Translations under genes and position numbers: made by a program
IMG/VR virus record: IMGVR_UViG_3300002092_001784
Span: 64,001 to 128,000 of that record
Length of the DNA: 64,000 bases
Source: a virus
Lineage: Duplodnaviria; Caudoviricetes
Reading direction: 5' to 3' (one strand)
Shown: one piece after another, positions 21,267-48,589 of the stretch
Position numbering within the stretch: position 1 is the first letter of the stretch
Layout: every line of letters begins with the position of its first letter
The notes under the pieces: generated by a model
The model's database searches: none
What the model was told of the DNA's origin: nothing
What the model saw: only the letters and a program-made list of their open reading frames with translations

Positions 21267-21340
21267 TTAACAATTTCTTAACATTAAATATTTGGAAATT
21301 CGTTAAAAAATACCTATCTTTGTGTATTGAGTTTTGAGAG
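21267..21340 (+). promoter_or_regulatory. Extended promoter with upstream TTAACA repeat and downstream leader motif
   Basis: TTAACA-N5-TTAACA, TTTG-N20-TATCTTTG, GTATTGAGTTTTGAGAG. Confidence 0.8.
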
Positions 21341-31623: not shown

Positions 31624-32002
31624 GGGGCTGACAGGTATTGACAGCGTATGACGAGGGTATATTGATGCAAGCGGGGTTAGATGGAAACCCTTGAACACCT
31701 ATCAAACAATAAAAGGCGTTAATAACTACGCATTAGCAGCGTAACCCATAGGGTTAACATAGCTTGGGGTCGTTGAACATATAACCTCGCAACAGAAGTT
31801 CATAAGGTGATGATACTACCAGCTAAGTGTATTGTGGGTGCAGGCGGAGCTCATATAAAATAATTCCAGCCAAGTTGTTTATCGGTGGGTTTCTCACATA
31901 CATCAAACCGTTTTATTTGTCAGTAAGAAACAACTGAATAAGCTTGTGAACGATGTGTATTTAAGCTATGTCTGGACGAGGATTCAACTTCCTCCAGCTC
32001 CA
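31624..32002 (+). ncRNA. ssrA: tmRNA; tag ORF 31715-31744 encodes GVNNYALAA
   Basis: 5' GGGGCTG pairs with CAGCTCC-A (G3.U70 alanine identity); T arm GAGGA-TTCAACT-TCCTC; tag ends in YALAA. Confidence 0.95.
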
Positions 32003-32081
32003 CGAAAATCAATTCAAGCTCGCCAATATCTAACTACTGCATCAAAACTGTGGATAGAGGTGAGCTTGATTTTTGTATTAA

Positions 32082-35431: not shown

Positions 35432-36300
35432 GATATTTTAATGAAACATTTGAAAATTCGGTTAATTATATACAAAACGCTTCCGTAGATTTATTATTCT
35501 TAGACCCACCATACTATATCAGTGGAAACAAAAAAAATATAAATTTAGAAACCGGTGATAGAAGTGATTGGGACTCACAATGGGAAACTAAAGATGAATA
35601 TTATAATTGGATTGAAACTGTACTAAAGTTAGGATATACTCAATTAAAAGATTATGGTTCTTTGTATTTGTGTATAAGTTGGCAACATTCTCCAATGTTT
35701 CATCTGTTGCTTGAAAAATGTGGATTTACAGTTCAAAACAGAATAACATGGAAACGAGATAAAGGTAGGGGTTCAAATAACAATTGGAAGTCTATGCATG
35801 AAGATGTTTTTTTTGCAACAAAGCATCCTAGCAAATACACATTCAATGTCAATGCGGTAATGATTGAAAAAAATGTAGTTGCCCCATATCGTAATACCGA
35901 TGGCTCTCCGAAGGATTGGTGGGTTGACGCCAATGGTAATAAAGTAAGATTGACATATCCGGGTAATATTTGGACAGATTTATGTGTACCGTATTGGAGT
36001 ATGAACGAAGTTAAAAGTTATGCAAAAACTAAAAAAACACCCAATAACTTATTTCAAAAACATAATACACAAAAACCAAAAGCTCTTGTGAAGCGATGTA
36101 TATTGGCAAGTACAAATGAGAATGATTTAGTTGTAGATTATTTTTCTGGTAGTGGAACTACTGCAATATCTTCTGAAGAACTAAATAGAAACTCAATTTC
36201 ATTTGAAATAAATAAAACATACATTGAAATATTAAAAACAAGAATTAATAACGAATTGCCAAATAATACTACAATAGATAATGATTTAACATTTTTTTAA
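35422..36300 (+). CDS. Beta-class N6-adenine/N4-cytosine DNA methyltransferase
   Basis: DPPY near the N-terminus, then HNTQKP and DYFSGSGTT near the C-terminus. Confidence 0.92.
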   Translation: MAIRYFNETFENSVNYIQNASVDLLFLDPPYYISGNKKNINLETGDRSDWDSQWETKDEYYNWIETVLKLGYTQLKDYGSLYLCISWQHSPMFHLLLEKCGFTVQNRITWKRDKGRGSNNNWKSMHEDVFFATKHPSKYTFNVNAVMIEKNVVAPYRNTDGSPKDWWVDANGNKVRLTYPGNIWTDLCVPYWSMNEVKSYAKTKKTPNNLFQKHNTQKPKALVKRCILASTNENDLVVDYFSGSGTTAISSEELNRNSISFEINKTYIEILKTRINNELPNNTTIDNDLTFF

Positions 36301-36357
36301 CATTAAAAATTTGGAAATACCAAATAAAAGTTGTATATTTGTAATGTAGTTCTTTGA
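36286..36357 (+). promoter_or_regulatory. Extended promoter plus boxA-like site heading the ncRNA region
   Basis: TTAACA repeat, TTTG-N20-TATATTTG, GTTCTTTGA at 36349. Confidence 0.8.
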
Positions 36358-36367
36358 GAAGATAATT

Positions 36368-36469
36368 GGTCGGGTGGCGAAATTGGTAGACGAATAATCT
36401 CTTACATATAGAGATAAGAATAAGGCTGCAAGGCAGTACTTCATGCAGGTTCGAGTCCTGCCCTGATCA
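36368..36469 (+). ncRNA. tRNA-Leu-like RNA with non-canonical anticodon region (copy 1)
   Basis: GGTCGGG/CCTGATC-A, D arm TGGCGAAATTGGTAGACG, T arm GCAGG-TTCGAGT-CCTGC. Confidence 0.7.
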
Positions 36470-36475
36470 CAAAAT

Positions 36476-36865
36476 AAATTCGTAACCGATAGCAGGTGGG
36501 CAGTAGGGCTATCCGAATTAAAACAAATGGTATAACGATGAAATGATCAACTCGAGATAAGATCAGAGTAGTATGAAAGTAAACGAAGCCCGTGGTATCA
36601 ATCAAACACCTCTACGTGGTGATGCTAGAAATCCAGAAATGGAGCTAAGTTTGAACAGTTCAGTTAAAAAAAGTAAGATGGTTAAAGTTAGTCCAAGCTT
36701 TAACATTAGTGTTCAATGGATTAGAAAGGGAAATCTGTAATCAGTCGTAATGGGCTATGAGCTTACGTCTAATCGCTAATATTTAATCATCGTGACCCTA
36801 ATCTTATTATTCCTATAATTTAATTGATGGAGTATGAACGTTAGTTCAGTAATAAGAAAGGGTTC
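36476..36865 (+). ncRNA. Unassigned structured RNA A
   Basis: No long ORF; helices GATAGC/GCTATC, ACGATGA/TCATCGT and ACCCT..CTTATTA/TAATAAG..AGGGT. Confidence 0.55.
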
Positions 36866-36872
36866 TAATATT

Positions 36873-36996
36873 GATCAGGTGGCGGAATTGGTAGACGCTT
36901 ACAATATGATAAGGTGAACGAGAGGAGAACCGATAAGAATCAACCGCTTTTATATTATTCAGCTTCACTTAGCAGGTTCGAATCCTGCCCTGATCA
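36873..36996 (+). ncRNA. tRNA-Leu-like RNA with a 73-nt insert replacing the anticodon and variable arms (copy 2)
   Basis: GATCAGG/CCTGATC-A, D arm TGGCGGAATTGGTAGACGC, T arm GCAGG-TTCGAAT-CCTGC. Confidence 0.7.
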
Positions 36997-37001
36997 CATA
37001 A

Positions 37002-37065
37002 TCGACCATAAGAGGATTGGTAATGAGGAACACATTACAAGTGGTTGACAGCTCGGAAAGACGGC
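37002..37065 (+). ncRNA. Small two-hairpin motif with GACAG..GGAAAGAC (possibly Flavo-1-like)
   Basis: TCGACCAT/GTGGTTGA followed by CAGCTCGGAAAGACGGC; second copy at 40353. Confidence 0.4.
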
Positions 37066-37085
37066 ATTTGTTCTTTGAAAAAATA

Positions 37086-37660
37086 AACTCTTCTGCTTGA
37101 AGCAAAGCAATCTTAAAGACATCCATAACCACCATAAGAACGTTTGTTGGGTTAATAAGATAGATCATAGCAGTGATCGTTGTTTTGTGGAGAGATGATA
37201 TAACGTTTTATCAATTCCAATCTGCAATTGGACAGAAGAGTTTTTAAAATAGAAAGAGGAGACTGGGTTATATTTGATAATGGAGGCAATTCCTGGATAT
37301 ATCACACTCCTCTAAATAAACAGGCTAAACATTGAATCCTGATGTGAATTACTGCCCGTAGGGTTAATTTATAGGTACTGATATTGTGCCCTTAATTCAC
37401 ATAAAGATGTACACAGTAATGTGTAACGTGTTGTTCCCTTGAGAAAGGAATAGTTTATGTTCAGAGACAGAGGGTGTACCTTGAGTACCGACTCTCACCA
37501 ACACGAATGAGTTCTCAGCAAAAATGATTAATAAGGAACGAAGCAATCCCTTAATATACATAGTGAGGTATAGTTAATCATTGTGACCCTACTCTTATCA
37601 GTAGTTTAAGAAACTATCGCTCTGTTTTTTACAGGATGGAAAGGATTGATAGACAAGAGG
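37086..37660 (+). ncRNA. Unassigned multi-domain structured RNA B (about 570 nt)
   Basis: Follows a boxA-like site; helices AAACTCTTCTG/CAGAAGAGTTT, GAGGAG/CTCCTC, ATGTGAATTA/TAATTCACAT, CGTGTTG/CAACACG, AATGATTAA/TTAATCATT. Confidence 0.6.
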
Positions 37661-37696
37661 GTGCTAATAAATAAATTGAAAAAAGTACAAAATTAA

Positions 37697-37728
37697 TTTG
37701 GAAATGTGAAAAATTATTCGTATCTTTG
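37697..37728 (+). promoter_or_regulatory. Bacteroidota promoter upstream of tRNA-fMet
   Basis: TTTG-N20-TATCTTTG. Confidence 0.75.
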
Positions 37729-37772
37729 TATAAATTAAAAAACTATATACTTATATATATATTAAAACATAC

Positions 37773-37850
37773 AGCAGGATGGACTGGAGATGGTCCCAGC
37801 TCGGTCTCATAAGCCGAATCACACGAGTTCGAATCTCGTTCCTGCAACCA
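37773..37850 (+). tRNA. tRNA-Met(CAT), probably initiator
   Basis: TCGGT-CTCATAA-GCCGA; 1:72 mismatch; CCA encoded. Confidence 0.85.
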
Positions 37851-37922
37851 TTAAAAAATTGATTGAAGCCAGCACCTAATAAAACCGAGTGCGTGAATAA
37901 ATAAAAAGCCGGACATCAATTT

Positions 37923-37994
37923 TTAACATTTTTTAACTAAAAAAGATTTGGAAATTAAAAATATTTTTCGTATCTTTGTAGTATAGTTCTTTGA
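37923..37994 (+). promoter_or_regulatory. Promoter plus boxA-like site
   Basis: Partial TTAAC repeat, TTTG-N20-TATCTTTG, GTTCTTTGA at 37986. Confidence 0.75.
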
Positions 37995-38001
37995 GATGAT
38001 T

Positions 38002-38153
38002 ATTGAAACAAGCTGGAGCTTGTAATGTGAAAATTGAATTAATTTAGGGGTTCATAACTCCTTCATCCAGCGGTGCAATACCGTAGTAACATTCAATGTA
38101 ATGTGGTTAATATTCAGAATAAGCAGATGATGGTTCAATTCCATCTTTCAATA
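38002..38153 (+). ncRNA. tRNA-like-capped RNA (152 nt)
   Basis: ATTGAAA/TTTCAAT-A acceptor-like stem; GATGG-TTCAATT-CCATC T arm; inner GCTGGA/TCCAGC helix. Confidence 0.6.
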
Positions 38154-38180
38154 ATTATTTTTAATAAAATTACAAAAAGA

Positions 38181-38242
38181 TTTGGAAATGTGAAAAATTT
38201 TTCGTATCTTTGTAAAACAAAATTAAAACATACGTTCTTTAA
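38181..38242 (+). promoter_or_regulatory. Promoter plus boxA-like site upstream of the GOLLD-like RNA
   Basis: TTTG-N20-TATCTTTG; GTTCTTTAA at 38234. Confidence 0.75.
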
Positions 38243-38259
38243 TAGTATTTAAGATTTAA

Positions 38260-39135
38260 GAACTGAACAAAGCTTCGGCAGAGTGAAAGTTCAAGACGGC
38301 CGCCTATGGTCGTTAAATAAACTACGAAAGTAGGATAAAGTGAACCGGTGTGGTTTATACGGTTTGCGGTTTGATAATCGAAAGGTTGTTGAGCTCGAGT
38401 AGGCAATGGAAATATCATCGCTCCTTTAGTATTGAGGGTAACACTGTAAAGATGGTGGAGAGATGACTGGGCTAAGTAGATAGTCCGGTTGAGTTCGGAA
38501 GAACAATAAGAATAATTTCAAGGATTTATGCAAGAAATGGGAACTTAATCCCTTCTCACTATTGCGTGATTCAATATGAGAGTTGACTTAAAACCGAAAG
38601 GTAATGTAAGTATGGTGAATTGCCAGAATGTACAGGTGGTGCTGTTATTCCTTTCACTACAAAGTTTTACCAAAAGCTTTGAATACTTCAGTCCACTTAA
38701 AATGTGGTGTTAGGGATAACACATTGGGTAGTTTAGTATTCCGTTGTTCAAAAGGTAACGGAGCTGGTTGGCGAACCACTACCCGAATCCATCTACAAAC
38801 CAAAACTATTTGAAATATGGTTCAAAACTAAAAATCAAAAAGCAAAAGTGTTCGTCAGTTGCAAGCGAAAGGTGCGTACTTAGTAATGGGTTGTCCATTG
38901 CCATATGTAATAGCCAAAATCATATGATTCTAAGGAAAGACTTCTAACACCGCAAGTGCTAATCAGTTCGGCAGAATTGATGAGGTGTAATAGTTGGAGA
39001 GTAGTTTGTAACTCAAAGAGTGGTTCACTTAAATAACCCGCATTGAATCAATACCAGCCAAAAGCAGGTGGATAATAAGGGAAACAATAATCCTTATAAA
39101 GATGGTTCACATAAGCAAGTAATCTCATTGCAAAT
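38260..39135 (+). ncRNA. GOLLD-like giant ornate RNA (boundaries approximate)
   Basis: About 870 nt with no credible ORF; many GNRA and UUCG-type hairpins; 3' blocks GTTCAAAAGGTAACG, AAAGCAAAAGT..GCAAGCGAAAG, GAGTAGTTTG..GAGTGGTT and GGTGGATAA resemble GOLLD as I recall it; next to tRNAs. Confidence 0.75.
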
Positions 39136-39143
39136 AACAAAAC

Positions 39144-39212
39144 GCGGAAATCGTATAATGTAGTATCACAGGCCTCCAGCCTGTTGGTTGTGGACGATTC
39201 CACATTTCCGCT
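39144..39212 (+). tRNA. Atypical tRNA-Gly(TCC)
   Basis: GCGGAAA/TTTCCGC-T; loop CCTCCAG (C33); 6-nt T loop ACGATT. Confidence 0.6.
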
Positions 39213-39251
39213 CACTTAGTTATGGTTCTATTAATTAAAAACCAAAAATTT

Positions 39252-39319
39252 GCGGTTTAAGTGTTACGGTAGCACAGGAACATTCCAGTTTCAAGATGGG
39301 TTCGACTCCCAAAACCGCT
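39252..39319 (+). tRNA. Atypical tRNA-Gly(TCC)
   Basis: GCGGTTT/AAACCGC-T; GGAAC-ATTCCA-GTTTC with a 6-nt loop. Confidence 0.55.
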
Positions 39320-39355
39320 CTAAGATAAATTCAGTTCAGTAATGAACTAAAAATC

Positions 39356-39458
39356 TACGGTAGAAGTGGGTGATTGGGCGGGATACCTTAAATAAGATTC
39401 GCAACTTTCAAGTCCATTCGCTTTCACAATAGTAAATGTGAATATTGTGACTACCGTA
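39356..39458 (+). ncRNA. Unassigned three-way-junction RNA
   Basis: TACGGTAG/CTACCGTA closing stem; TCACAATA/TATTGTGA hairpin. Confidence 0.5.
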
Positions 39459-39496
39459 AAAATATTAAAAAAATAAAAACATAATACTTATATACA

Positions 39497-39622
39497 ATGA
39501 AAACCTTAGCATTACATACAAATTTGTTTAATTTACCACTCTATAAAAGCTGGTCGAATATTTGTGTGTTTAATTCAAGCATTCGCAAGAGTTCAGTTGA
39601 GGGAAGTAATTTATTTACGTGA
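39497..39622 (+). CDS. Leader peptide 1 (41 aa), candidate attenuator of the downstream tRNA array
   Basis: MKTLALHTNLFNLPLYKSWSNICVFNSSIRKSSVEGSNLFT; 39593-39603 is complementary to the terminator 5' arm. Confidence 0.7.
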   Translation: MKTLALHTNLFNLPLYKSWSNICVFNSSIRKSSVEGSNLFT

Positions 39623-39660
39623 CGTATTAGAAGATAAAAGAATACAAACTAACTAAATAG

Positions 39661-39694
39661 ACCCTCTACTGATAAACAAAGTAGGGGGTTTTTT
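39661..39694 (+). terminator. Attenuator terminator 1
   Basis: ACCCTCTACT/AGTAGGGGGT 10-bp stem followed by a T run. Confidence 0.85.
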
Positions 39695-39709
39695 CGTTTG
39701 TAACAATTT

Positions 39710-39780
39710 GTTTCTATGGTGAAATGGTATCACGACGGACTGTTAATCCGTGATTTATGGTTCGAGTCCATATGGGAACG
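39710..39780 (+). tRNA. tRNA-Asn(GTT)
   Basis: ACGGA-CTGTTAA-TCCGT; full cloverleaf. Confidence 0.92.
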
Positions 39781-39819
39781 CTAGAACAAAAGGTTCATTG
39801 AAATATTTGAGTTTGATTT

Positions 39820-39894
39820 GGGCATGTAGTTTAGCTGGTTGAAAATGTCTGGTTTACACCCAGAAGACCGTAGGTTCAAATCCTACCTTGCCTA
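39820..39894 (+). tRNA. tRNA-Val(TAC)
   Basis: TCTGG-TTTACAC-CCAGA. Confidence 0.9.
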
Positions 39895-39904
39895 CATATA
39901 ATAT

Positions 39905-39971
39905 GCCGACGAACAGGAATAAGCCGGGTCTGTAAAACCCTAGCTCGAGGTTTCGATCACCTCCGGCGGCA
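39905..39971 (+). tRNA. Truncated tRNA-Tyr(GTA) without a clear D stem or long variable arm
   Basis: GGGT-CTGTAAA-ACCC; T arm GAGGT-TTCGATC-ACCTC; 67 nt. Confidence 0.65.
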
Positions 39972-39976
39972 CAATT

Positions 39977-40049
39977 GGAGAAGAAGCTAACTTGGTAGAA
40001 GCACTGGTCTGAAAAATCAGAGGAATTGGATCGAAACCAATCTTTTCCA
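39977..40049 (+). tRNA. tRNA-Phe(GAA)
   Basis: CTGGT-CTGAAAA-ATCAG. Confidence 0.9.
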
Positions 40050-40076
40050 CAATCCAAAAAGGATTATATTAAAAAT

Positions 40077-40150
40077 GACTTCGTGGCCAAACTGGATAAG
40101 GCTTCTCACTTTTAATGAGAAAATTGTGAGTTCAAATCTCACCGGAGTCA
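40077..40150 (+). tRNA. tRNA-Lys(TTT)
   Basis: TCTCA-CTTTTAA-TGAGA. Confidence 0.92.
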
Positions 40151-40249
40151 CTAGGGAACGTGGGTGGTAATCTGACCGGATATAGGATTGGATGGGAAAC
40201 AGACAGGGAGCCTGCTGAAATTCTGTAAAGGGTTGGGAATTTATGTTAT

Positions 40250-40322
40250 GGTTCGGTAGACCAACGGTAGAGTCAGTAGTTTCAAAAGCTATAAAGTGTG
40301 GGTTCGAATCCCACTCGGACTA
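40250..40322 (+). tRNA. tRNA-Leu(CAA) with short variable loop
   Basis: GTAGT-TTCAAAA-GCTAT; A73. Confidence 0.82.
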
Positions 40323-40352
40323 CATTGGAATACATATTCGAACGAAGTGTAT

Positions 40353-40405
40353 TAGCAAAGACGAGAAGTCAATCATTCGTTTGTGACAGGTGTGGAAAGA
40401 CATAC
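40353..40405 (+). ncRNA. Second GACAG..GGAAAGAC motif
   Basis: Helix ending in TGA, then CAGGTGTGGAAAGACATAC. Confidence 0.4.
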
Positions 40406-40410
40406 GATAT

Positions 40411-40485
40411 GGTCCGGTAGCCCAATTTGGTAGAGGCAGCAGACTTAAACCCTGCATAGTGAGAGTTCAAATCTCTTTCGGACTA
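40411..40485 (+). tRNA. tRNA-Leu(TAA) with short variable loop
   Basis: GCAGA-CTTAAAC-CCTGC; A73. Confidence 0.82.
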
Positions 40486-40495
40486 CAATTATTAA

Positions 40496-40569
40496 CGGCG
40501 AATCGTCTAATTTGGTTAGGACGCAAATCTGATAAGTTTGTAATCCCAGTTCGAAGCTGGGCTCGCCGA
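40496..40569 (+). tRNA. tRNA-Ile(GAT)
   Basis: CAAAT-CTGATAA-GTTTG. Confidence 0.88.
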
Positions 40570-40586
40570 CAAACAATAAAAAAAAT

Positions 40587-40678
40587 GGAAGTATAAATCC
40601 CAGATGGACTAAGGGAGCCGGTCTTGAAAACCGTAGGTCGCTAAACACGGCGTGTAAGTTCGAGTCTTACTACTTCCG
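40587..40678 (+). tRNA. tRNA-Ser(TGA)
   Basis: CCGGT-CTTGAAA-ACCGT; long variable arm; G73. Confidence 0.9.
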
Positions 40679-40781
40679 CAGCATGTGTGATATATCACTC
40701 ATTAATGATTAATTTGATTAAAATAAACAACATTATGAAAAAACTATTTGACAAGTATTAGGTTAATTAAAACCTAGTATT

Positions 40782-41003
40782 ATGAAACCGTACAAAAAAT
40801 CAATGATTGCTAAAACTACAACTTGTAGAAAAGAATACAAAGTAGTTACTAACCGTTTTTATAAAGACCCGTATTGGGATGAAGGGCTATACTTTTATCC
40901 AACAATACGAAAGGGTTATAAAAACCCTAACAGACAGATTATGAGTTATCAGATTAGAATGTATCGAACTTGGAAACATAATCGGAAAACTCAATGGAAA
41001 TAA
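40782..41003 (+). CDS. Hypothetical basic protein
   Basis: 73 aa, ends YRTWKHNRKTQWK. Confidence 0.6.
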   Translation: MKPYKKSMIAKTTTCRKEYKVVTNRFYKDPYWDEGLYFYPTIRKGYKNPNRQIMSYQIRMYRTWKHNRKTQWK

Positions 41004-41010
41004 ACAATAC

Positions 41011-41092
41011 ACATTCGCTCATTGGCGTGACCAGCCGGCTCCAACCCGGTAATGCGTAAGCGTGGTTGAGGGTTCGAATCCCTACGAATGTG
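41011..41092 (+). tRNA. Atypical tRNA-Trp(CCA) with long variable arm
   Basis: ACATTCG/CGAATGT-G; GCCGG-CTCCAAC-CCGGT; extra arm ATGCG-TAAG-CGTG. Confidence 0.65.
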
Positions 41093-41098
41093 CACTAT

Positions 41099-41171
41099 AC
41101 GTAAGTAGCTCAATTGGTAGAGTAGTGGTCTCCAAAACCACCGGTTGGGAGTTCGAGTCTCTCCTTACGTG
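41099..41171 (+). tRNA. tRNA-Trp(CCA)
   Basis: GTGGT-CTCCAAA-ACCAC. Confidence 0.92.
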
Positions 41172-41174
41172 CAT

Positions 41175-41251
41175 GGCCTTATGGTGTAATTGAATAACAC
41201 GCTTCGCTACGGACGAAGAGAGTGAGGGTTTGAATCCTTCTAGGGTCACCA
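41175..41251 (+). tRNA. tRNA-Arg(ACG)
   Basis: CTTCG-CTACGGA-CGAAG; CCA encoded. Confidence 0.9.
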
Positions 41252-41253
41252 AT

Positions 41254-41327
41254 TTAACAATTTCTTAACATTAAAAATTTGGAAATACTGAATAAATGTA
41301 GTATATTTGATTATAAAATTAAGAGAT
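41254..41327 (+). promoter_or_regulatory. Extended promoter
   Basis: TTAACA-N5-TTAACA, TTTG-N20-TATATTTG. Confidence 0.78.
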
Positions 41328-41468
41328 ATGACAAAAGTATGGATAGCCGATGTAAACCGAAAAGATGGTAGGAAGCTAGTTTCATTTTGGAACAGTACTT
41401 TGACCGGAACATATTTTATTGAAAAGAATCGTTTTGGTAAACTTTATTCAGTAATCAAACAGTTTTAA
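41328..41468 (+). CDS. Small protein (46 aa), not in ORF track
   Basis: MTKVWIADVNRKDGRKLVSFW..., directly after the promoter. Confidence 0.55.
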   Translation: MTKVWIADVNRKDGRKLVSFWNSTLTGTYFIEKNRFGKLYSVIKQF

Positions 41469-41471
41469 GTT

Positions 41472-42194
41472 ATGAAACAGTTAATCGGATTTACCATTAA
41501 GTATTATACATTGTGGAATTATTCAGAAGAGCCGCAATACGTTACGGATGCATATGGTAATCATCATCAAAGTGGTATCAAACAGCATTATGAATACATT
41601 AAGAATGTAAGTTTTGATATTGAAAAGGTGAAGAAACTACACCCCGAACTTTCAATCGATGAAGGGCTTAGGGGTAAGACCAGTAGTTGGTATGATTACA
41701 AAAAGATTGATTTACCTAACAACATTTTTTGGGGTGGTAAATATACCGGTCTATTGATTGATGAAATTCTGGTTAGAGATTTTAAGTATTGCCGATGGGC
41801 TGCATCGAATTACAGTCAGGTGGAAGAATATCTTTCAACCTGTCCGTTTTATTTGGAGCAGATGGGTCAACAACAAAAACGGTTGGATGAACAACTAAAA
41901 TCAGCAGGATTGTTAACCGAAGGTCAGATTGCTACTATTCATTTTACATCAAATGGATATAACGCCAATGATGAATTTACAGAGTGTTGGGCAACTGGTA
42001 TTTATGATTCTATTGGGGTTAAGGTGATGTTTAACGGTGTTAAACGGGTTGGTGGTATGTATCCTTATCTAATGCCATTGGTTAACGGAAAGTGTCAAAA
42101 AACGAAAGGAAAGGCATTTCAAATTGAAGTGGCTGAAGTATTCAATACGAATGTTTACAAAGATACAATTACTCAACAGATACGAATTAAATAA
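41472..42194 (+). CDS. Hypothetical protein
   Basis: 240 aa ORF. Confidence 0.65.
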   Translation: MKQLIGFTIKYYTLWNYSEEPQYVTDAYGNHHQSGIKQHYEYIKNVSFDIEKVKKLHPELSIDEGLRGKTSSWYDYKKIDLPNNIFWGGKYTGLLIDEILVRDFKYCRWAASNYSQVEEYLSTCPFYLEQMGQQQKRLDEQLKSAGLLTEGQIATIHFTSNGYNANDEFTECWATGIYDSIGVKVMFNGVKRVGGMYPYLMPLVNGKCQKTKGKAFQIEVAEVFNTNVYKDTITQQIRIK

Positions 42195-43838: not shown

Positions 43839-43909
43839 GTCACACAAATCAAATGGATTGGTGCTTGTCTGCAAAATAAGATTAGTGAGTTCGATTCTCA
43901 CGTGTGACT
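43839..43909 (+). tRNA. tRNA-Cys(GCA)
   Basis: CTTGT-CTGCAAA-ATAAG; U73. Confidence 0.88.
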
Positions 43910-43914
43910 CATAT

Positions 43915-43988
43915 GGTGTCTATGGTGTTAATGGTAGCATGACAGATTGTGGTTCTGTGGGTGAGAGGTTCGAATCCTCCTAGACACA
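43915..43988 (+). tRNA. tRNA-His(GTG)
   Basis: ACAGA-TTGTGGT-TCTGT; encoded G-1. Confidence 0.88.
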
Positions 43989-43997
43989 CTTAAAAAA

Positions 43998-44048
43998 ATT
44001 ATAAGGCTAGAACCTTATAATCGCATATTATAAGGCTAGAACCTTATA
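43998..44048 (+). repeat. Twin 22-nt direct repeat, each copy a hairpin
   Basis: ATTATAAGGCTAGAACCTTATA at 43998 and 44027. Confidence 0.9.
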
Positions 44049-44055
44049 TTTTTAT

Positions 44056-44141
44056 GGAGAGTGAAGTAGCAAGGTCTGTTACCACCGCCTGCTAAGCGGA
44101 TGGCTCTGAAAATGGGTACGTTTCGAATACGTCGTTCTCCG
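44056..44141 (+). tRNA. tRNA-Ser(GCT)
   Basis: CCGC-CTGCTAA-GCGG; long variable arm; G73. Confidence 0.88.
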
Positions 44142-44154
44142 CATTTATTAACTC

Positions 44155-44228
44155 GGTTCGGTAGACCAATTGGTAGAGTCAACGGCTTTAGACACCGTCC
44201 AGTGTGGGTTCGAATCCCACTCGAACTA
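44155..44228 (+). tRNA. tRNA-Leu(TAG) with short variable loop
   Basis: ACGGC-TTTAGAC-ACCGT; paralog of the tRNA at 40250. Confidence 0.82.
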
Positions 44229-44241
44229 CAAAAAGATATTT

Positions 44242-47276: not shown

Positions 47277-47312
47277 AATAGTGATTTTTTAATTTTTGAA
47301 TACTTATATACG

Positions 47313-47417
47313 ATGAAGAACACAATAAACACATACCCGCAACCTAGTAGACCAACAACCGTTGGGACAGGAAGAGGTACGCAAAATTACATAGTTCGGA
47401 ATCGCAAATTAGATTAA
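47313..47417 (+). CDS. Leader peptide 2 (34 aa), candidate attenuator of the Arg/Pro/Thr/Gly/Gln tRNA array
   Basis: MKNTINTYPQPSRPTTVGTGRGTQNYIVRNRKLD; 47392-47400 is complementary to the terminator 5' arm. Confidence 0.75.
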   Translation: MKNTINTYPQPSRPTTVGTGRGTQNYIVRNRKLD

Positions 47418-47440
47418 ATAAAAAACATTCATATAATTTG

Positions 47441-47480
47441 AAAAATCCGAGCTAAACATAAAGAGTTCGGATTTTTTATT
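47441..47480 (+). terminator. Attenuator terminator 2
   Basis: AAAAATCCGAGCT / AGTTCGGATTTTT followed by a T-rich tail. Confidence 0.85.
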
Positions 47481-48128: not shown

Positions 48129-48201
48129 AGCGAGTGAGGTGTAATGATTTTGCATACCGCATTTGGGATGCGGGGGAGGAGTTTGATTCTCACACTTGCT
48201 A
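48129..48201 (+). tRNA. tRNA-Pro(TGG)
   Basis: CCGCA-TTTGGGA-TGCGG; weak T stem. Confidence 0.8.
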
Positions 48202-48229
48202 CAAAAAAATAAAAACGAAGTAGTTATAT

Positions 48230-48589
48230 ATGGAAAAACTAACATATAAAACCGATGGGGACATGAGTGAATACTTCGAAAGATTATCCGATATAATCAA
48301 AAAAGGGAAAACACAGGAAGAAGTGGTATCAATGATTCTTAATGTGGTAAACGCCAAGAAAAAGTTGGTGAAGTATAAAGGTGGCAAATGTGAATTATGC
48401 GGATACAATCGAAGTATAAATGCATTACATTTTCATACTCGTAACAAAGATGGTAAAGATTATATCATAAGTGGCAAAACTTTATCAATGGATACTCTTA
48501 AAAAGGATGTGGATAAATATGTATTGGTTTGTTCAAATTGCAGAGTAGAAATAAATGAAGGAATTGTTGATATTAGTTTGGAAAGTTGA
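48230..48589 (+). CDS. Degenerate HNH-like protein
   Basis: KGGKCELCGY...ALHFH...VCSNC. Confidence 0.65.
   Translation: MEKLTYKTDGDMSEYFERLSDIIKKGKTQEEVVSMILNVVNAKKKLVKYKGGKCELCGYNRSINALHFHTRNKDGKDYIISGKTLSMDTLKKDVDKYVLVCSNCRVEINEGIVDISLES

Follow-up and report, generated by a model that had tools for sequence, protein, structure and literature searches.

The window considered here is a stretch of 64,000 nucleotides, bases 64001-128000 of a 266,153-bp phage record (IMG/VR IMGVR_UViG_3300002092_001784), with 32-38% G+C and every gene on the + strand. Between 39483 and 41251 it carries a short open reading frame (ORF), here called leader 1, followed by an intrinsic terminator and then by an array of tRNA genes; the relationship among these three is the subject of this report. 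The sequencing runs that contain the window sequence are freshwater and lake metagenomes, and two metatranscriptome runs contain about 8% of the words sampled from the stretch. The features that matter for the argument, in window coordinates, are as follows.

38183-38212, + strand: nearest upstream canonical promoter (TGGAAA-N16-TATCTTTG), preceding the GOLLD RNA
39483-39501, + strand: start-region motif AATACTTATATACAATGAA, with an exact copy at a second leader (47299-47317)
39497-39622, + strand: leader ORF, 41 codons and a TGA stop (stop codon at 39620), from the ORF list; peptide MKTLALHTNLFNLPLYKSWSNICVFNSSIRKSSVEGSNLFT
39504-39510, + strand: candidate anti-antiterminator, pairing with 39596-39602 in the full-length fold
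39521-39589, + strand: sensor block, codons 9-31 (NLFNLPLYKSWSNICVFNSSIRK), with 21 of its 23 residues drawn from the amino acid set of the downstream tRNAs
39593-39603, + strand: predicted antiterminator 5′ strand TCAGTTGAGGG, in codons 33-36, pairing with the terminator 5′ arm
39661-39694, + strand: intrinsic terminator (5′ arm 39661-39670, loop 39671-39679, 3′ arm 39680-39689, T run to 39694)
39710-40677, + strand: first part of the tRNA array (ARAGORN, Rfam): Asn(GUU), Val(UAC), Tyr(GUA), Phe(GAA), Lys(UUU), Leu(CAA), Leu(UAA), Ile(GAU) and a Ser(UGA)-like gene
40782-41003, + strand: 73-amino-acid (aa) ORF embedded in the array, with 127 homologues; the anchor for relatives
41011-41251, + strand: second part of the array (ARAGORN, Rfam): a class-II tRNA-like gene with a CCA anticodon, Trp(CCA) and Arg(ACG)

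A preliminary description of the locus had proposed a 41-codon ORF at 39497-39622, a 10-bp terminator at 39661-39694, and 12 tRNAs extending to 41251, and all three are present. The terminator consists of a 10-bp stem that includes one G-U pair, a 9-nt loop, and a T6 run, with a free energy (dG) of -14.7 kcal/mol; tRNA-Asn starts at 39710, 16 nt past it, so that the terminator sits between the leader ORF and the tRNA genes. The count of 12 holds when tRNA-like genes are included. ARAGORN at default settings calls nine genes (Asn, Val, Phe, Lys, Leu[CAA], Leu[UAA], Ile, Trp, and Arg[ACG]), and at relaxed settings adds Tyr(GUA) at 39902-39972 and the class-II tRNA-like gene at 41011-41093; the remaining one, at 40587-40677, has only a sub-threshold Rfam class-II match and a UGA anticodon loop, and is probably a Ser tRNA. 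The class-II gene with the CCA anticodon, which has a long variable arm, directly precedes the ordinary tRNA-Trp(CCA) and is absent at that position in the sister strain introduced below.

The beginning of the leader coincides with a 19-mer, AATACTTATATACRATGAA (R at position 14), whose 3′ end lies within the first codons of the ORF and which is found at only two sites in the 266-kb genome, 39483 and 47299. Because the -33/-7 boxes of the genome's well-defined promoter class do not precede it, a role for the motif as a promoter was ruled out; it is probably a translation-initiation region common to both leaders. Searching IMG/VR contigs for the 19-nt motif gave five matches, all of them chance occurrences inside protein genes. 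As a protein query, the leader 1 peptide found only itself among 5.8 billion proteins, exact and degenerate DNA patterns found nothing in metagenome contigs or in viral contigs, and a search of GenBank phages for close relatives returned tRNA and GOLLD fragments only.

The composition of the leader mirrors that of the array. The array serves Asn, Val, Tyr, Phe, Lys, Leu, Ile, Ser, Trp, and Arg, and the sensor block is made up almost wholly of codons for these ten amino acids, each of which is represented there. Of the 40 leader residues, 31 belong to this set, compared to 0.56 in the proteome (binomial P = 0.004). Among random short ORFs of the genome (n = 572), the mean fraction in the array set is 0.67; 12% reach 0.775, and 1.7% both reach the fraction seen in the leader and cover all ten amino acids (P about 0.02). 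The five AAT codons, and the five of six Leu codons that are TTA or TTG, had been counted correctly in the preliminary description. It had also assigned the leftover TGT, AGC, and CAT codons to Cys, Ser(GCU), and His tRNAs farther downstream. Those tRNAs do exist, at 43839-44142, but they lie 2.6 kb on, behind four protein genes and promoters at 41280 and 42904, and therefore cannot be gated by the terminator at 39661-39694.

Ten of the 11 positions of the in-ORF segment TCAGTTGAGGG (39593-39603) can pair with CCCTCTACTGA (39662-39672), confirming the pairing first reported for this locus. The duplex has an energy of -11.0 kcal/mol (P = 0.029 against 5000 leader shuffles). When the nascent RNA is folded as far as 39679, with the 3′ arm not yet made, the antiterminator is the minimum free energy (MFE) structure. 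It remains so when a 30-nt ribosome mask is placed at codons 12-26, and a mask at codon 30 half covers it. These predictions fit readthrough on stalling in the sensor block. The MFE structure of the full transcript (39483-39700) contains the terminator, with 39596-39602 then paired to 39504-39510, so that the latter may act as an anti-antiterminator; in the sister strain, a change at 39509 (G>A) turns a G-U pair of this helix into A-U.

A sister strain, about 93% identical and represented by contig L013 from lake metagenomes, has the same layout. Its leader ORF is open at equal length (L013:1077-1202), with nine substitutions in eight codons and no indel. Six of the eight changed codons are nonsynonymous, so that conservation does not extend to the peptide sequence itself; of the six replacements, four stay within the amino acid set of the array, and a swap of AGC-ATT-CGC to CGC-ATT-AGT retains one CGC codon, readable by Arg(ACG). 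No differences are seen in the start motif, in the antiterminator segment, or in either arm of the terminator. The 38-nt spacer past the stop codon differs by five substitutions and a 2-nt deletion, and the sister terminator gains two extra closing pairs (dG -19.2).

The same genome carries a second leader unit (47299-47480). Its ORF, 47313-47417, has 34 codons (MKNTINTYPQPSRPTTVGTGRGTQ...), is rich in Pro, Gln, Arg, Thr, and Gly, and precedes tRNAs for Arg(UCU), Pro, Thr, Gly, Gly, and Gln, of which Pro(UGG), at 48129-48202, was detected only with a relaxed threshold. The terminator is at 47445-47472, and the in-ORF segment AGTTCGGA matches its 3′ arm. This second array is interrupted by protein genes and by a promoter at 48579.

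Leader 1 alone makes a suggestive rather than a compelling case; the support is carried by comparative evidence. A neighboring 240-aa protein was tried as an anchor; it had 104 homologues, but in unrelated contexts without tRNA arrays. The anchor used was the 73-aa ORF at 40782-41003, with an alignment of its family serving to fetch 67 viral loci. Its product is a basic protein with the consensus ...PYWDEG...MYRTWKHNRKTQWK that matches no Pfam family and that lies inside or adjoining tRNA arrays in most of the related phage contigs for which context was fetched. Two further anchors (P0119 and P0116) led to arrays of the Glu/Asp/Tyr type, outside the leader-1 family.

The pipeline applied to these loci was blind to composition. 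It combined ARAGORN with a detector of hairpins followed by T runs, accepted terminators with dG <= -9 lying 0-350 nt before a tRNA, and took as the leader the longest ORF that starts with ATG, spans 15-60 codons, and has its end within 90 nt upstream of the terminator. Run on 72 records, it returned 57 terminator-to-tRNA junctions with a preceding short ORF, in 25 leader families, all of which were kept, obvious false positives included. In many of these, the leader is a striking image of its array; four such leaders and the tRNAs that follow them are given here.

Leader MRRHSIHTISISTSSS...: downstream tRNAs Ser, Ser, Ser, His, His, Thr, Thr, Ser, Ile, Ile
Leader MKKMSNILVLCLCVLVL...: downstream tRNAs Cys, Cys, Val, Val, and five Leu
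Leader MRQFTHTMSFTICSKWADER...: downstream tRNAs Ala, Ile, Phe, Lys, Glu, Asp, Trp, Arg, Cys, His, Met
Leader MNNTFTHTCQFTFWPTQPF...: downstream tRNAs Pro, Trp, Cys, Phe, Gln

Across the families, 345 of 804 leader residues matched the leader's own array, compared to 233.9 ± 16.8 when arrays were permuted among families (z = 6.6); none of 100,000 permutations reached 345, the maximum being 313. The match was specific to the reading frame (0.43 in frame versus 0.30 and 0.28 in the other two) and was found as well for codon-anticodon pairs at the wobble level (z = 7.7). Genome composition is controlled for by comparison within loci: where at least two leaders are present, residues specific to the leader's own array made up 0.37, versus 0.21 for the other array (P = 0.008). 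The preliminary description had envisioned a general sensor of tRNA shortage; across the class, each leader is instead specific to its own array. Regulatory codons cognate to the array content are found both in leader 1 and at the level of the class.

The position of the matching residues and the pairing partners of the terminators point in the same direction. Upstream of the predicted antiterminator, 53% of residues match, versus 24% in or after it (P = 1e-15), and such an upstream concentration is what an attenuator requires. The summed duplex energy of leaders with the 5′ arms of their cognate terminators was -245.8, versus -179.2 ± 10 with the arms of others (z = -6.6). Within one family of seven members (L050), there are three unrelated terminator sequences, each with a matching in-ORF partner; 7 of 10 antiterminator pairs are compensatory, and 85.7% of cells are paired, versus 11-44% with slid partners. 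Most variation of the sensor part in this family falls at third codon positions, and Ser is kept where AGC/AGT and TCG replace one another; between two other loci, L020 and L027, the differences are synonymous changes and an in-frame 3-nt indel. Third-position variation, Ser box switches, and an in-frame indel are the signatures expected of a translated frame.

A further family of leader-like ORFs (MNRNLYIEMCNEI...), each with its own terminator, was seen at L020:1699-1822, L027:94-240, and L032:1311-1436. It sits one gene upstream of Glu/Tyr/Asp/Asn/Cys/Met/Ile arrays and mirrors those, not the single tRNA-Met that directly follows; these ORFs may be tandem attenuators.

The transcript that carries leader 1 probably starts some distance upstream. 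Promoters of one sharply defined class, TGGAAA-N16-TAT(A/C)TTTG, number 24 in the window, versus 2.9 expected, and 42 genome-wide; we take their -7 box to be of the Bacteroidota type. Since no closer promoter is present, the leader RNA probably begins at the one at 38183, which belongs to the GOLLD RNA (RF02032). The full-length GOLLD match spans 38724-39131 (275 bits, model positions 1-416), and the RNA itself probably extends from about 38260. The leader region is outside this covariance-model match, beginning 366 nt further on, past a tRNA-like element. Thus, leader 1 probably rides on the GOLLD transcript, downstream of the tRNA-like element and of a Y-shaped structure, and GOLLD, the tRNA-like element, the conserved structure, and the leader are possibly all on one transcript.

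We consider it likely that the element is a ribosome-mediated, leader-peptide transcription attenuator gating the 12-gene phage tRNA array. The core of this reading, in which a translated leader mirrors the tRNAs and an antiterminator within the ORF controls the terminator, is the one first put forward for the locus, and it has the support of independent comparative tests. What we observe directly is the anatomy of the sequence, the alternative pairings, the statistical mirroring of arrays by leaders, and the antiterminator covariation in the sibling family; from these we infer translation of the ORF, ribosome stalling, and the direction of the switch. We imagine that a transcript entering the region, probably from the promoter at 38183, would carry the 41-codon ORF, and that when cognate charged tRNAs are scarce the leading ribosome would stall in codons 9-31. 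A ribosome stalled there would leave 39593-39603 free to pair with 39662-39672, the hairpin would not form in time, and RNA polymerase would enter the tRNA genes. With fast decoding, the ribosome would cover the antiterminator and reach the stop codon at 39620, and the hairpin at 39661-39689, with its U run, would terminate transcription 16 nt before tRNA-Asn. The outcome would be a negative feedback in which the phage tRNAs are produced when their codons are decoded slowly.

Several observations weigh against this reading of leader 1. Its own statistics are modest (P about 0.02 for composition and about 0.03 for pairing), and its amino acid set is what AT-rich ORFs tend to encode. Its family has two members only, with no covariation. 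A motif scan found no promoter of the TGGAAA-N16 class between 38183 and 41280, whereas in most relatives a canonical promoter lies 20-60 nt upstream of the leader ATG; leader 1 would need to be translated from a long, structured transcript that contains GOLLD. At the class level, codon-box specificity for Leu, Arg, and Ser was not significant (53 readable versus 47.7 expected), and matching at the level of isoacceptors is not demonstrated. Static folding with a ribosome mask at codons 12-26 bears out the antiterminator but does not explain the "off" state: a ribosome masked at the stop codon leaves the antiterminator as the MFE structure. Plausibly, the terminating ribosome would partly mask the GGG nucleus of the antiterminator. 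The 3′ end of the antiterminator is 18 nt from the last base of the stop codon, within the commonest range of the class (-13 to -18); from the mRNA path on the 30S subunit, the 5′ edge of a ribosome terminating there would be expected at roughly this distance. Alternatively, the "off" state might be set by the upstream pairing of 39504-39510 with 39596-39602.

The observations can also be read without attenuation. The ORF could be a chance one, with the hairpin at 39661-39694 simply ending the GOLLD/tRNA-like unit and the array being transcribed by constitutive leaky readthrough or from an unrecognized promoter. With no promoter between 38183 and 41280, the terminator does end a long noncoding unit; moreover, 12% of random short ORFs reach the match fraction of leader 1, and the substitutions that separate the two strains are distributed over all codon positions. 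What makes this explanation unlikely, in our view, is the coincidence of composition, pairing, a 19-nt motif shared with the second unit, and an ORF left open in the sister strain, together with the recurrence of the architecture across 25 leader families, where frame specificity and covariation accompany a mirror of z = 6.6-7.7. The 16 nt between terminator and tRNA-Asn also leave no room for a promoter.

Two other explanations grant the element a function and seem to us very improbable, each of them less probable than even a chance ORF. The ORF might encode a functional small protein, or the 200-nt RNA that ends at the terminator might be a small regulatory RNA, in either case with its own terminator and no regulatory link to the tRNAs. 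Small genes followed by terminators are abundant in phage genomes, and a released attenuator RNA and its leader peptide can act in trans in bacteria, as is reported for Sinorhizobium rnTrpL/peTrpL (PMC6614838, PMC7298713). The peptide, however, lacks homologues among 5.8 billion proteins and has six of eight changed codons nonsynonymous in the sister strain, and a free-standing protein would not be expected to mirror a tRNA set or to carry a covarying antiterminator. A switch independent of translation, in which a factor or a tRNA binds the leader RNA directly, in the manner of a T-box or through a protein, seems no easier to uphold. It would be consistent with an alternative pairing that exists irrespective of translation and with the highly conserved structured element just upstream, at 39356-39459. 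Yet no Rfam family, T-box included, matches 39330-39710 at E <= 1; the mirror is confined to the ORF frame (0.43 versus 0.28-0.30), synonymous box switches keep the amino acid, and one RNA fold could hardly read ten different tRNAs. Attenuation by a translated leader remains the reading we prefer.

Leader 1 is part of a noncoding RNA island at 36300-41470 that includes promoters at 36312, 37699, 37949, and 38183, GOLLD, the tRNA-like element, the leader, and the tRNA array. The tRNA-like element, at 39251-39320, has acceptor and T arms, and ARAGORN gives it a 2-nt "anticodon" (tc); it is kept in the sister strain (L013:821-890). The Y-shaped RNA structure that follows, 104 nt long (39356-39459), has an MFE of -30.7 kcal/mol (z = -3.8). 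It is identical in both strains, which are 93% identical overall, and so is the most conserved part of the region; it matches no Rfam family, and nothing similar occurs in the other loci fetched. Farther upstream are two tRNA-like genes with long inserts, at 36368-36469 and 36873-36996 (Rfam tRNA, 28.6 and 34.8 bits), and between them is a weak match to an HDV-like ribozyme (36595-36658; 24 bits, under the gathering score). A phage tmRNA with the tag peptide VNNYALAA lies at 31624-32003 (ARAGORN and Rfam, 83 bits). Throughout the genome, a (T)TTGAGAG box is conserved 10-20 nt after many of the TGGAAA-N16-TATMTTTG promoters, for example, those at 21293, 25645, 36312, and 37949 of the window; it may be a transcript-start or antitermination signal.

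Two further tRNA arrays of the genome are arranged differently. The Cys/His/Ser/Leu(UAG) array at 43839-44229 was considered as leader gated and rejected, being directly 3′ of an 85-aa gene and without a leader. Between its tRNA-His and tRNA-Ser(GCU), a direct repeat, TTATAAGGCTAGAACCTTATA, is present in two copies (43990-44050). A third array (Glu, Glu, Asp, one unassigned, and Ala; genome positions 148157-149353) has a promoter and an 88-codon ORF upstream but lacks a terminator, and thus represents a different architecture.

The proposed mechanism has clear counterparts in the leader-peptide attenuators of enterobacterial amino acid operons, such as trpL, hisL, leuL, pheL, and thrL. As in those, a short ORF contains regulatory codons, a terminator precedes the regulated genes, the position of the ribosome would free an antiterminator, and stalling would lead to readthrough. 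The phage element differs in targeting tRNAs rather than biosynthetic enzymes, and there is no sequence relationship. In its sensor, some ten amino acids each appear once or a few times, whereas enterobacterial leaders have a run of one, and its stop codon comes after the antiterminator segment and not, as in enterobacterial leaders, before it. Multivalent attenuators are known, in ilvGMEDA (Leu/Val/Ile) and thr (Thr/Ile), where several amino acids are likewise integrated by one leader; there, the amino acids number two or three and belong to one pathway, while the phage leader has ten, set by the tRNA content of the array.

The closest parallels are E. coli pheM-pheST, for phenylalanyl-tRNA synthetase, and, in bacilli, the His leader preceding hisS paralogues (PMC2965389), in which attenuation acts on the translation apparatus and charged tRNA is sensed. 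The target in those cases is the synthetase for a single amino acid; here, it would be the tRNA genes themselves. T-box riboswitches likewise sense tRNA status and control a terminator/antiterminator choice before genes of the translation apparatus. They bind uncharged tRNA through a specifier codon and a conserved T-box sequence, without translation, whereas the phage signal is frame specific; cmscan found no T-box match in 36200-41500 at E <= 1. We found no description of leader-peptide attenuation of tRNA genes, phage or cellular, in the full-text literature, a search that left most subscription journals outside its reach. If our interpretation is correct, a known attenuation mechanism is extended to a new target, tRNA genes, and to viruses.

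The purpose and control of phage tRNA arrays are debated, with compensation for codon usage set against escape from depletion of host tRNAs. It seems likely to us, with somewhat less assurance than for leader 1 itself, that large phages of Bacteroidota-like hosts, and possibly others, carry modular, fast-evolving "mirror" attenuators, in which a mini-ORF lists the codons of the array, so that the phage gauges decoding for each codon set and switches on exactly those tRNAs that are short. The leaders spell out the content of their arrays and are therefore recognizable by computer, and they could help in annotating the boundaries of tRNA operons; the testable readout is readthrough at one terminator. 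If the interpretation holds, the shortage sensed could stem from cleavage of host tRNAs by anticodon nucleases, from host shutoff, or from a host with mismatched codon usage, and the leaders could predict which tRNAs matter in infection or which codons limit translation. A built-in sensor coupling each array to the speed at which its own codons are decoded would show that tRNAs are supplied on demand.

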